DNA of 46,115 bases from a virus. Its lineage: Duplodnaviria > Caudoviricetes. Below the pieces are notes generated by a model. It ran no database searches. It saw only the letters and a program-made list of their open reading frames with translations, and was not told the DNA's origin. Both the position numbers and the translations under genes were made by a program. This document shows, in pieces, positions 32,018 through 34,290 of this stretch. Where the stretch lies: IMG/VR virus record IMGVR_UViG_3300031228_000011, positions 1 through 46,115 of that record. One strand, written 5' to 3'. Each line of letters begins with the position of its first letter. Position 1 is the first letter of the stretch.

Positions 32018-33763
32018 TTACGCTCGCTCCTCGCGGCTATTCGGTTGGGCATGGAAAACAGGGGAAACACCGCGAGGGCTCTCGGGCTTATTGTGAGAGA
32101 GATCGTGGGAGGGATTGAGGTGGTCGACTTGGTCGATGCGCCGGCCGATCCAAGCCATGACGGGGACGGCCATGCTGTTGCCGAGCGCCTTGTAGCGCGG
32201 GCCGTCGGGGCACTGCGCTTTCCCGCGCCAGGGGATGTTGGTGTAGTCGTCGGGGAAGCCTTGGAGACGTTCGCACTCGACGGGCGTAAGCCTTCTTACC
32301 GCGCTCGCTTGGCTCGCATGTAATGGAGGCCGCACAGCCCCTTCGCGTGAGCCGTCTCCCCGCACTCCCGGCATTGCGTCTTGGGCGGTGTCCCCACTTT
32401 CAGGGGATCGCCCCAGCGCTTGAAGCGCAGCAGATGCTTGTTGCAGAAGCCGCGCCCCTTCTGCGGTTCCCCGCAGATGGTGCAGGGCGTCCTCGGGCGA
32501 TGCTCCTTCATGTGACAGCTTCGACAGAGCCGCATCAAGTTCTCGAGCCGGTTGTCCTGCCAGTCGTCGTTCTTGTGGTGAACCTCGGCTCGCGAGTTCC
32601 CGCAATGCTCGCACGGCCCCGGCGGGCATATCTTCCGCGCGTGGTAGTGCGCTGTCATCCAGGAAACCATCGTGACCTCCAGTAACATAAGCCACCGCTG
32701 GCATCACCCCCGCATTGGCATGGCTCTTGCTGTGACCGCCTGCCCGCAGAGTGGGGCTGCAATCCTCCATCGCATCGGCGCCATGGTCCTTGGCGGAGAA
32801 GGCGATGGGCTGCGCCAGTATCGCGCCGGGGCCACCGCCGTTGTTGCCACCCATTGCGGACAGGCACGGCCAAACCATTTCGGGCGTGACCAGTGCATCG
32901 CCTTGAAAGCCAGTTTTGACGGGCACGGGTGCAGGCTTGCCATCGTTGTCGATCCGCAGGGCCACCGGCACCAGCGGCGTCCCGCGTCCGGTTCCATCCT
33001 CGCTGGCGTCGAAGCCTTCACCGCGAAGGGAATGGGCGACGCAATATTCGTCCATCCCATCCCGGCCCGTGCCCGTGCCCGTGCGGGTGGTCATGGCGGG
33101 AACTACGTCAAGGCAGATGATGTGTCCGGCCTGGCCCTGGTTGTCATCTGCGCCGCAAGTTCCAACGCCTGTTGCAGTGAGTGCGGCAACTGCCGGTCCC
33201 GCTTGGCGGCTCGGCGCAATATTCCACGACAGGCTGTGGCGCTCAAAAAGAACCGCCGCAGCACGTCGCCAGTCTCCAGAATGTCCAACAACGAACACGC
33301 GGCGGCGCCGTTGGGGAATTCCAAAGTGCTGAGCGTCCAAGATTCGGTAGGCGAACCCATACCCGAGTTCGACCAGCCCTCCGAGGATGGAACCAAAGTC
33401 CCGTCCGCCTCCCGACGACAGGACGCCGGGGACGTTCTCCCACACCAGCCATCGGGGCCGTGTGCGATCAGCAAGGCGGAGAAACTCAAGCGCGAGGTTG
33501 CCACGGTCGTCAGCCAGTCCGCCTCTAAGGCCGGCGATGCTGAACGATTGACAGGGGGTGCCTCCGACAAGAAGGTCAATTGGCCCATATTCGTCGGCTC
33601 CGATCGTGGTGAAGTCGCCGTGAAGCGGAACATGCGGGTAATGGTGCGCCAGCACGGCGCGCGGGAATGCCTCTATCTCGGAGAAGAACGCAGGCTCCCA
33701 TCCCAGCGGGTGCCAGGCAGCGGTTGCGGCTTCTATTCCGCTGCAAACACTTCCGTATCTCAC
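32018..33763 (-). CDS. dcm: DNA (cytosine-5) methyltransferase with an enlarged variable region
   Basis: Motif I SVCSGIEA, IV GGTPCQSFS, VI ENVPG, VIII QRRRRVF, IX RRLTPVECERLQGFP, X YKALGNSM. Confidence 0.95.
   Translation of the reverse strand: MRYGSVCSGIEAATAAWHPLGWEPAFFSEIEAFPRAVLAHHYPHVPLHGDFTTIGADEYGPIDLLVGGTPCQSFSIAGLRGGLADDRGNLALEFLRLADRTRPRWLVWENVPGVLSSGGGRDFGSILGGLVELGYGFAYRILDAQHFGIPQRRRRVFVVGHSGDWRRAAAVLFERHSLSWNIAPSRQAGPAVAALTATGVGTCGADDNQGQAGHIICLDVVPAMTTRTGTGTGRDGMDEYCVAHSLRGEGFDASEDGTGRGTPLVPVALRIDNDGKPAPVPVKTGFQGDALVTPEMVWPCLSAMGGNNGGGPGAILAQPIAFSAKDHGADAMEDCSPTLRAGGHSKSHANAGVMPAVAYVTGGHDGFLDDSALPRAEDMPAGAVRALRELASRGSPQERRLAGQPARELDAALSKLSHEGASPEDALHHLRGTAEGARLLQQASAALQALGRSPESGDTAQDAMPGVRGDGSREGAVRPPLHASQASAVRRLTPVECERLQGFPDDYTNIPWRGKAQCPDGPRYKALGNSMAVPVMAWIGRRIDQVDHLNPSHDLSHNKPESPRGVSPVFHAQPNSREERA
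32296..32670 (-). CDS. HNH endonuclease with Zn-finger repeats, nested in the +1 frame of dcm
   Basis: CEHCG...VHHKNDDWQDNRLENL..LC.SCH..EH plus two C..C......G.C..H repeats; GGAGG RBS before the ATG at 32670. Confidence 0.85.
   Translation of the reverse strand: MVSWMTAHYHARKICPPGPCEHCGNSRAEVHHKNDDWQDNRLENLMRLCRSCHMKEHRPRTPCTICGEPQKGRGFCNKHLLRFKRWGDPLKVGTPPKTQCRECGETAHAKGLCGLHYMRAKRAR
33103..33588 (-). CDS. Overprinted polypeptide in the +1 frame of dcm, resembling the M.EcoHK31I beta subunit N-terminal region
   Basis: WSNSGM...W.....E.P......SL.DILE......FFLS..AC.GILRRA.KR...LP..L..AL. Confidence 0.7.
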   Translation of the reverse strand: MGQLTFLSEAPPVNRSASPALEADWLTTVATSRLSFSALLIAHGPDGWCGRTSPASCRREADGTLVPSSEGWSNSGMGSPTESWTLSTLEFPNGAAACSLLDILETGDVLRRFFLSATACRGILRRAAKRDRQLPHSLQQALELAAQMTTRARPDTSSALT

Positions 33764-34290
33764 TGCGCGCCCTCCACATATTTGAGGACGGCAAGGAGTT
33801 CGGCAGCGGTCGCGTCCGACTTGATGCGGTTAGCCCGGAACGAAATTACCCTTACGTTGGAGGGCGTGTAGCCATGCTCGGGAATGATGCGGTCCAAGGA
33901 TGCGCGATGATCGCGCGGCCCATCGGACGACAATGTGATGCCCAACACGGGGCACACGGCCGGGATCGTGATGTCGTCCGGCGCAATGGTGAACGGAAGA
34001 CCGCGAGCTCGCGCACGTTTGCGAGCGTCGTAGAACATGCAGTATTCGGTGGTCTGAGACTTTCCGTGCGAACGGAACATCGCTCCCATGCGGTCCCGGC
34101 GAAAACAGCCGCAGCTTCGATTTTTGCCGAAGCGAAGGTTGGAGCCCGGCAGCACAAGGACGCCGCCGCAATCGCAGGTGCAGCGCCAACGCCATTGGTC
34201 ACGGCGCCGACCTTCAACGCGCGCCGCGACAGTCAACCGACCAAAGCGTTGGCCCAATTCGATGCCGGAACAGACGGAGCCGTAGCGCAC
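33760..34290 (-). CDS. HNH-type homing endonuclease whose first 11 residues duplicate the dcm N-terminus
   Basis: GQRFGRLTV...W.C.CDCG...SCGC domain; CPVLG...SLDRI....GY...NV..IS..AN..K nuclease motif; GTG at 34290 coupled to the upstream TAG. Confidence 0.85.
   Translation of the reverse strand: MRYGSVCSGIELGQRFGRLTVAARVEGRRRDQWRWRCTCDCGGVLVLPGSNLRFGKNRSCGCFRRDRMGAMFRSHGKSQTTEYCMFYDARKRARARGLPFTIAPDDITIPAVCPVLGITLSSDGPRDHRASLDRIIPEHGYTPSNVRVISFRANRIKSDATAAELLAVLKYVEGAQ

Follow-up and report, generated by a model that had tools for sequence, protein, structure and literature searches.

The window analysed here is a whole virus record of 46,115 nucleotides (46 kb) with direct terminal repeats. 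It encodes a terminase, a portal, a capsid protein, a tape measure protein, a repressor and an integrase and is, by gene content, a temperate tailed phage. The dcm/HNH locus, which contains a DNA methyltransferase gene with other reading frames nested in it, lies in the operon adjoining the repressor. A promoter scan returned no sigma-70-like site, and the terminator scan gave four weak sites against 1.8 expected. The features of the locus are the following:

32018..33763, minus strand: host C5-cytosine DNA methyltransferase (Dcm), 581 aa in a single open frame (PF00145, E 2e-49; TIGR00675, E 5e-52)
32296..32670, minus strand: overprinted HNH endonuclease, 124 aa in the +1 frame of dcm, with an HNH core and two C-terminal C..C...C..H fingers
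32676..32680, minus strand: GGAGG Shine-Dalgarno-like (SD-like) site, 5 nt ahead of the HNH ATG (32670) and presumably used by it
32300..32689, minus strand: inserted segment read in the dcm frame, about Y359-A488 (about 130 codons, ends approximate), a low-confidence and partly helical linker in the model
32267..32302, minus strand: start of motif IX, A-V-R-R-L-T-P-V-E-C-E-R, with the atypical codons GTA AGA AGG CTT; predicted target region
33103..33633, minus strand: second nested +1-frame ORF, 176 aa, with an alternative ATG at 33588 after GGAG (phrog_16143, DNA methyltransferase, E 4e-6)
33760..34290, minus strand: separate upstream endonuclease gene with a GGAG site (phrog_3322, E 2e-31)

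Dcm belongs to the C5-cytosine methyltransferases (PF00145), as motifs I, IV (PC), VI (ENV), VIII, IX and X and an HhaI-like fold are present. Motifs I-VIII are contained within residues 1-170, and motifs IX-X at about 489-550. In the AlphaFold model the pLDDT of ten-residue blocks is mostly above 85 over residues 1-170 and 90-96 over 491-550, and it stays below 50 across most of 176-483, almost all of the variable region with the insert. The top Foldseek match of the model is M.HhaI (E 2e-14, rmsd 1.6 over 164 columns). The model contains no folded target-recognition domain, and the methylase activity of the window Dcm is therefore considered putative. Across 40 aligned hosts occupied by the HNH, no variation occurs in the catalytic residues PCQ, ENV, R-x-R and GN. 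About 10 of 12 inspected host loci are broken outside the insert. Frame breaks lie upstream of the insert in L103, L118, L129, L130, L184 and L190, and lone in-frame stops in otherwise intact hosts occur at L140:1567-1569, L261:1185-1187 and L128:2377-2379, two of them within motif IV.

The HNH had been proposed from the sequence alone as a complete 124-aa protein with its own GGAGG ribosome-binding site in the +1 frame of dcm, and this is confirmed by the ORF at 32296-32670 and by its family matches. It matches PF13392 with an E value of 6e-5, under the curated cut-off, and several PHROG HNH families, the best at 7e-9. An alternative upstream ATG at 32688 would extend the protein to 130 aa. 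Foldseek comparison of the HNH model with the PDB gave no match at E <=0.001, with weak HNH-containing rows only, and a profile search of the PDB sequences reached a best E of 0.04. The model of a full-length relative (L002) has a mean pLDDT of 91. Most family members are about 163 aa long and carry a Cys domain at the N-terminus, which the window HNH lacks; positions 1-58 of the family profile were not found anywhere in the whole genome record. The loss of this domain may have altered or abolished the specificity of the nuclease. The window HNH also carries a second C-terminal finger, and two fingers are found in 16 of 110 family loci. L001 and L148 share the N-truncation and have an SD-like site, and L154, L158 and P0003 start similarly. 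This shared start indicates that the window HNH is a subtype and probably not a product of simple decay, and the N-truncated subtype appears to be new here.

The alignment with dcm homologues lacking the insert, suggested earlier as a check, places the 5' boundary after AVA, which is common to the empty alleles L042 and L081, and the 3' boundary at VRRLTP. The stop codon TAA of the HNH (32298-32296) falls within the dcm codons GTA AGA, the Val-Arg of motif IX. The sequence-only reading described this stop as built into unusual VRRL codons. The codons are indeed odd, AGA being used once among the 278 Arg codons of 10 window genes, but VRRL itself is the ordinary motif IX of the Dcm family of the window. 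A +1-frame stop is also cheap at this site, being already present within the VRRLT codons of 40 of 68 insert-free alleles. The insert peptide read in the dcm frame has no PHROG match, and a search with that peptide found no relatives because that frame is too divergent. Over the insert, the HNH frame has a GC content of 0.84 at the third codon position, compared with 0.49 for the dcm frame, and the HNH is therefore taken as the primary reading of this segment.

The absence of intein and intron hallmarks noted in the first reading is borne out by the Rfam and Pfam searches. Rfam scans gave no significant intron match in the window between 31500 and 34500, with chance matches only, and none in 10 relatives. 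A group I or group II intron was rejected on these scans, which revealed no matching ribozyme core. An intein was likewise rejected, as there is no Hint splicing domain and the insert ends read Y-V-T and A-S-A instead of a Cys/Ser start and a His-Asn end; in each of the 40 hosts compared, Pfam gave PF00145 alone, without an intein family.

The dcm frame is free of stops across the HNH, as had been noted, though barely beyond chance when the window is taken alone: 5% of 300 synonymous shuffles keep it open (p about 0.05), and 17 of 413 windows of 125 codons in 19 other long ORFs of the window are open in the same frame. The family was gathered by HNH similarity alone, from 15 loci plus the best 80 of 132 viral loci, nine genome loci, the best 80 of 205 metagenome loci and two annotated phage regions. 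A total of 190 loci was examined, of which 164 reached at least 100 bits and 26, mostly distant HNHs with many stops, were dropped. Dereplication at 90% left 110 loci, ranging from a Staphylococcus phage to proteobacterial genomes. The host frame contains no stop in 107 of these 110, where synonymous shuffles predict 0.3 open loci, over a GC range of 26-70%. The 32 stops observed, against 820 expected, all lie in the three exceptions, and at GC below 0.45 all 13 loci are open with about 11 stops expected in each. The exceptions (L141, L210 and L220) lie outside any dcm frame; with 7-16 stops in the -1 frame, they act as natural controls. They are placed, respectively, directly after dcm, overlapping a C-terminal dcm remnant and before a reductase-like gene. 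The open host frame, which is weak evidence from the window alone, is decisive across the family; frequent host-frame stops in homologous inserts, raised earlier as evidence that would count against dual coding, occur in just three of the 110 loci and in none inside a dcm frame.

Among the 107 open loci, both dcm ends match the same ORF in 72 (including a few of the Leu-stop-Leu alleles described below), the C end only in 28, the N end only in 6 and neither in 1. The insertion site is just before motif IX in 94 loci, between motifs IX and X in 8 and unplaced in 5. The window HNH family occupies this second site, with the host frame open, in L015, L139, L145, L147, L149-L151 and L153. One dcm locus, L273, carries a tandem pair of family copies (540-974 and 1310-1744). 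An SD-like motif precedes 59 of 104 family ATG starts, compared with 44 of 393 control positions.

The comparison of selection in the two frames, also suggested from the sequence, gave a dN/dS of 0.20 for the HNH frame (31 independent pairs). The dcm-frame value across the insert is 1.07, which is confounded by the constraint on the HNH and was therefore set aside as evidence. The Cys, His and Arg positions checked in the HNH are invariant in 107 of 107 loci. A relative has a 93%-identical insert in which 10 of the 11 codon changes in the HNH frame are synonymous and 8 of the 10 in the dcm frame are non-synonymous, without any stop, in a comparison that rests on 12 of the 16 differences. Relative to a stop-free null, the host-frame peptide contains 0.77x Pro, 0.74x Val and 1.15x Leu, and these biases are present in 86, 97 and 92 of 107 loci, respectively, the loci being related and non-independent. 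This composition suggests mild selection on a retained peptide.

The distribution of the HNH is patchy. It is present in 3 of the 80 closest Dcm relatives, and the nearest relatives of the window Dcm are empty alleles. The occupied alleles are scattered on the Dcm tree, with 18 changes for 25 rows, and a test on a quick LG+G4 tree, after removal of two rows with unseen C-termini, rejects monophyly for the 25 occupied alleles relative to the 81 others (p-AU 1.4e-11). With 6 starred of 100 inner branches, the tree is poorly supported. The scatter could also be explained by losses or by general recombination in the modular dcm gene. The identity of the HNH correlates with that of the host N-terminus (Spearman 0.42, n=45), and at HNH identities of at least 65% the hosts fall to 45% or less in just 3 of 201 pairs; much of the inheritance is therefore vertical.

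The occupied and empty alleles differ in motif IX. When matched for N-terminal identity, 63 of 69 empty and 3 of 20 occupied alleles have ECERL, a contrast biased by the retrieval of the empty alleles with the Dcm of the window, itself ECERL. AGR codons encode Arg at the RR position in 43 of 105 occupied versus 6 of 94 empty alleles, and no such difference is observed downstream. The nucleotide divergence between the two groups is strongest at codons -2 to 10 and is also high at codon 16. The window itself has the ECERL of the empty alleles, and its differences lie for the most part in codons -1 to 6. The motif-IX DNA is the putative target of the HNH, and its recoding would confer immunity. 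The earlier claim of a mobile nuclease is supported by the non-monophyly and by the recoded motif IX but tempered by the host-HNH identity correlation (rho 0.42).

The preferred reading, to which a probability of about 0.72 is assigned, is that the HNH is overprinted in an open C5-methyltransferase frame as a probably selfish homing element that is translated through and not spliced out. Nearly all relatives keep the methylase frame stop-free across the HNH, which makes read-through the likely route and strongly supports the earlier suggestion of dual coding instead of splicing. The two frames, the family-wide stop avoidance, the purifying selection on the HNH, the patchy distribution and the recoding are direct observations. 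From a single mRNA, the full Dcm would be translated with the insert as a tolerated linker of roughly 130 aa that ends the variable region and keeps motifs IX-X joined to the catalytic domain of a presumably active methylase, and the HNH would be translated from its own ribosome-binding site on the same mRNA. Then, during co-infection or in the presence of a resident prophage, the HNH would nick or cut an empty dcm at the conserved motif-IX coding DNA beside the insertion point. Repair templated by the occupied allele would copy the insert together with the recoded motif-IX codons, and these would render the product immune to further cleavage, so that homing could proceed.

Other explanations have to be weighed against this one. 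It is unlikely that the HNH is a domesticated and mostly vertically inherited partner of the methylase (such as a competition or restriction-like nuclease, with its own DNA protected by Dcm) and not a homing enzyme. The identity correlation of 0.42, the strong purifying selection and the persistence of the HNH across GC 26-70% agree with such a partnership, as does the fact that free-standing family members adjoin dcm in L141 and L210. On the other hand, a partner would hardly be restricted to 3 of the 80 closest relatives, occur in non-monophyletic alleles and coincide with recoding concentrated beside the insert, and the same gene has been invaded independently by other endonucleases. A slightly lower likelihood is given to the possibility that the family is a homing element while the N-truncated copy in the window is an immobile or decaying remnant, kept since clean removal is rare. 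The missing profile positions 1-58 and the empty-type ECERL point in this direction, but the copy has its own SD and ATG, intact HNH residues and the extra finger found in 16 of 110 loci. Furthermore, the same truncation with an SD-like site recurs in L001 and L148, with similar starts in L154, L158 and P0003, and a close relative drifts synonymously only.

The removal or skipping of the insert by unrecognised RNA splicing, a long ribosomal bypass or protein splicing, giving a mature Dcm without it, is improbable. Removal at the RNA level would put no selection on the host frame, and the open frames therefore argue against it. No Rfam or Pfam splicing model matches, there is little non-coding room for a ribozyme core, and the host frame is Pro/Val-poor and Leu-rich beyond stop avoidance, as expected of a retained peptide. 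The observations in favour of removal are that the folding of the insert RNA is slightly more stable than that of shuffled sequences (z -1.9), that some relatives have a probable stop-hop nearby and that one wastewater contig skips 32291-32695 (405 nt, in frame). This contig is weak evidence, with 80% likeness in a run flagged as probably DNA, and its joint would at most be an empty DNA allele; the two wastewater sequencing runs compared contain only relatives and are uninformative about splicing. The least probable explanation, with very little left in its favour, is that the dcm frame stays open as a side effect of high GC, with the methylase a dead passenger. The p of about 0.05 in the window alone and the hosts broken upstream would be compatible with it, but it is already largely refuted at the family level by the 13 of 13 open loci at GC below 0.45, each with about 11 expected stops, and by the invariant catalytic motifs of the occupied hosts.

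A hidden out-of-frame HNH has been described in the phage methylases ShiLan gp65 and Pacc40 gp60, in work based on about ten mycobacteriophage sequences (Arsenault, Gosselin, Gogarten 2025, PMC11855218), and a patchy spread of the ShiLan domain is reported (Gosselin 2023, PMC9957025). As described there, the ShiLan element shares with that of the window a zinc-finger HNH in an alternative frame of a phage DNA methylase with a stop-free host frame, the lack of intron and intein features, the patchy distribution and a host-frame product unstructured in models (PMC11855218). However, ShiLan gp65 is an amino-methylase (DPPY motif) without blastp match to the window Dcm, whereas the host in the window is a C5 enzyme. 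The ShiLan HNH is reported in the +2 frame with a GTG start and no ribosome-binding site (PMC11855218), compared with the +1 frame, ATG and GGAGG of the window HNH, and the two match over the HNH motif only (residues 30-71, E 2e-4). The window family differs further in its motif-IX site and in the SD that precedes 59 of 104 starts. Descent from the ShiLan element was rejected on host class, frame and HNH; the window element seems to work like it as a separate element and not as a member by descent. The novelty assigned in the sequence-only reading was too high, since the hidden-HNH design had already been published (PMC11855218). No paper on an overprinted HNH in a cytosine methyltransferase was found in mostly non-subscription literature, and the supplements or GitHub survey of PMC11855218 may list C5 cases. 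The window element is judged real and well supported at the family level, its design itself having been published in 2025. What the family adds is quantitative evidence (107 of 110 open, GC 26-70%) and a predicted target region.

MobA and MobE of T4-like phages are described as free-standing, intronless homing endonucleases (PMC2988022; bioRxiv 2022.08.31.505936). They share with the window element an unspliced HNH insertion in a conserved host gene and a divergent, element-borne copy of the target, and a translational-bypass insert is reported to block self-cleavage by MobA (bioRxiv 2022.08.31.505936). MobA and MobE are reported to split the host into two polypeptides, whereas dual coding leaves the host of the window element in one continuous frame. 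Some inteins are likewise reported to contain a homing endonuclease in another frame inside the open host frame (bioRxiv 2025.01.02.630785), but these have a splicing domain that removes the insert and none was found in the window element. The window family indicates that a probable homing endonuclease can persist in a protein-coding gene without intron or intein, through the evolution of codons that keep the host frame open. Annotation pipelines miss such nucleases and report over-long methylases. The HNH is also unannotated in gp45 of the Staphylococcus epidermidis phage CUB-EPI_14, which is cultured and offers a test system for the hidden HNH.

Other elements are placed in the same gene. 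The nested ORF at 33103-33633, with the HNH and dcm, thus makes three overlapping ORFs; it has a tblastn match in 80 of 80 dcm relatives, with an internal stop in two. We take it to resemble the beta-chain arrangement of EcoHK31I, the phrog_16143 match (E 4e-6) being its sole sequence support. A tblastn search of plasmids with this ORF gave no named EcoHK31I match among the 25 of 524 matches listed. M.EcoHK31I is described as an overlapping alpha/beta C5-methyltransferase, the second chain nested in another frame (PMC2836561), and the window dcm likewise has a nested alternative-frame ORF. The alpha chain of M.EcoHK31I is reported without motif IX (PMC2836561), which is present in the alpha counterpart of the window, VRRLTPVECERLQGFPD.

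The first 11 codons of the upstream endonuclease encode the same peptide as the start of dcm, VRYGSVCSGIE (33731-33763), with 11/11 residues and 21/33 nucleotides identical; 12 of 33 bases are changed and no residue. This endonuclease is probably another mobile nuclease that entered dcm behind codon 11 and restored the dcm start in recoded form, an arrangement that seems to be new here. The duplicated start would lend independent support to recoding in the same gene. No such duplication was found in the available flanks of 80 dcm relatives, and five distant relatives of the upstream nuclease do not adjoin dcm. In the close Dcm relatives L018:2652-3209 and L068:2658-3215, a different HNH family lies between motifs IX and X, in the +2 frame and with the host frame open. 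It has five IMG/VR loci, of two distinct sequence types by identity. Overprinting has arisen more than once in the dcm gene.

In nine distinct relative loci (L117/L119, L122, L214, L223/L230, L231, L268-L274 and L276-L283), motif IX reads T-P-Leu-stop-Leu-E-C with the downstream motifs intact; the window lacks this insert, which appears to be new here. In an IMG/VR search with the flanking codons left free, seven of eight matches were CTY-stop-CTT with TAG, TGA or TAA, the eighth being unrelated DNA, and the HNH lies upstream in six of the seven. The Leu-stop-Leu is present in 5 of 94 occupied and 0 of 68 empty alleles (p 0.07). The empty-type Arg is kept in 8 of 8 HNH-bearing Leu-stop-Leu alleles, compared with 43 of 89 others (p 0.006). 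The matched codons around three different stops suggest stop-hopping, and Leu-stop-Leu is therefore a candidate programmed in-frame stop-hop. Readthrough, pseudogenes or re-initiation are possible explanations, and several of these alleles have an SD-like site and an ATG just upstream. A broader and tentative proposal, more doubtful than the homing of the HNH itself, is that phage C5-methylase genes are a hotspot of splicing-free homing in which the HNH protects its own allele either by motif-IX recoding, as in the window, or by a 6-nt stop-Leu stop-hop (CUY-stop-CUN). A 2016 review reports no known natural occurrence of a stop-hop (PMC5009743). If the proposal is true, the relatives, and not the window, would hold a natural stop-hop that parallels the T4 gene 60/MobA bypass cassette in minimal form and could serve translation biology as a natural example. 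This stop-hop link is the part that merits pursuit.

Two further observations concern related HNH genes. The locus L166:1306-4038 is an intein of the terminase large subunit, the endonuclease slot of which has an out-of-frame (+1) HNH, and HNH genes may become adapted to dual coding by way of inteins of this type. Among the HNHs with a stop in the Leu-Thr codons, 54 of 66 loci end in Asp, where the commonest empty-allele codons would give Ala-Ala-stop; the Asp ends may, as we presume, reflect the avoidance of an ssrA-like C-terminal degron.
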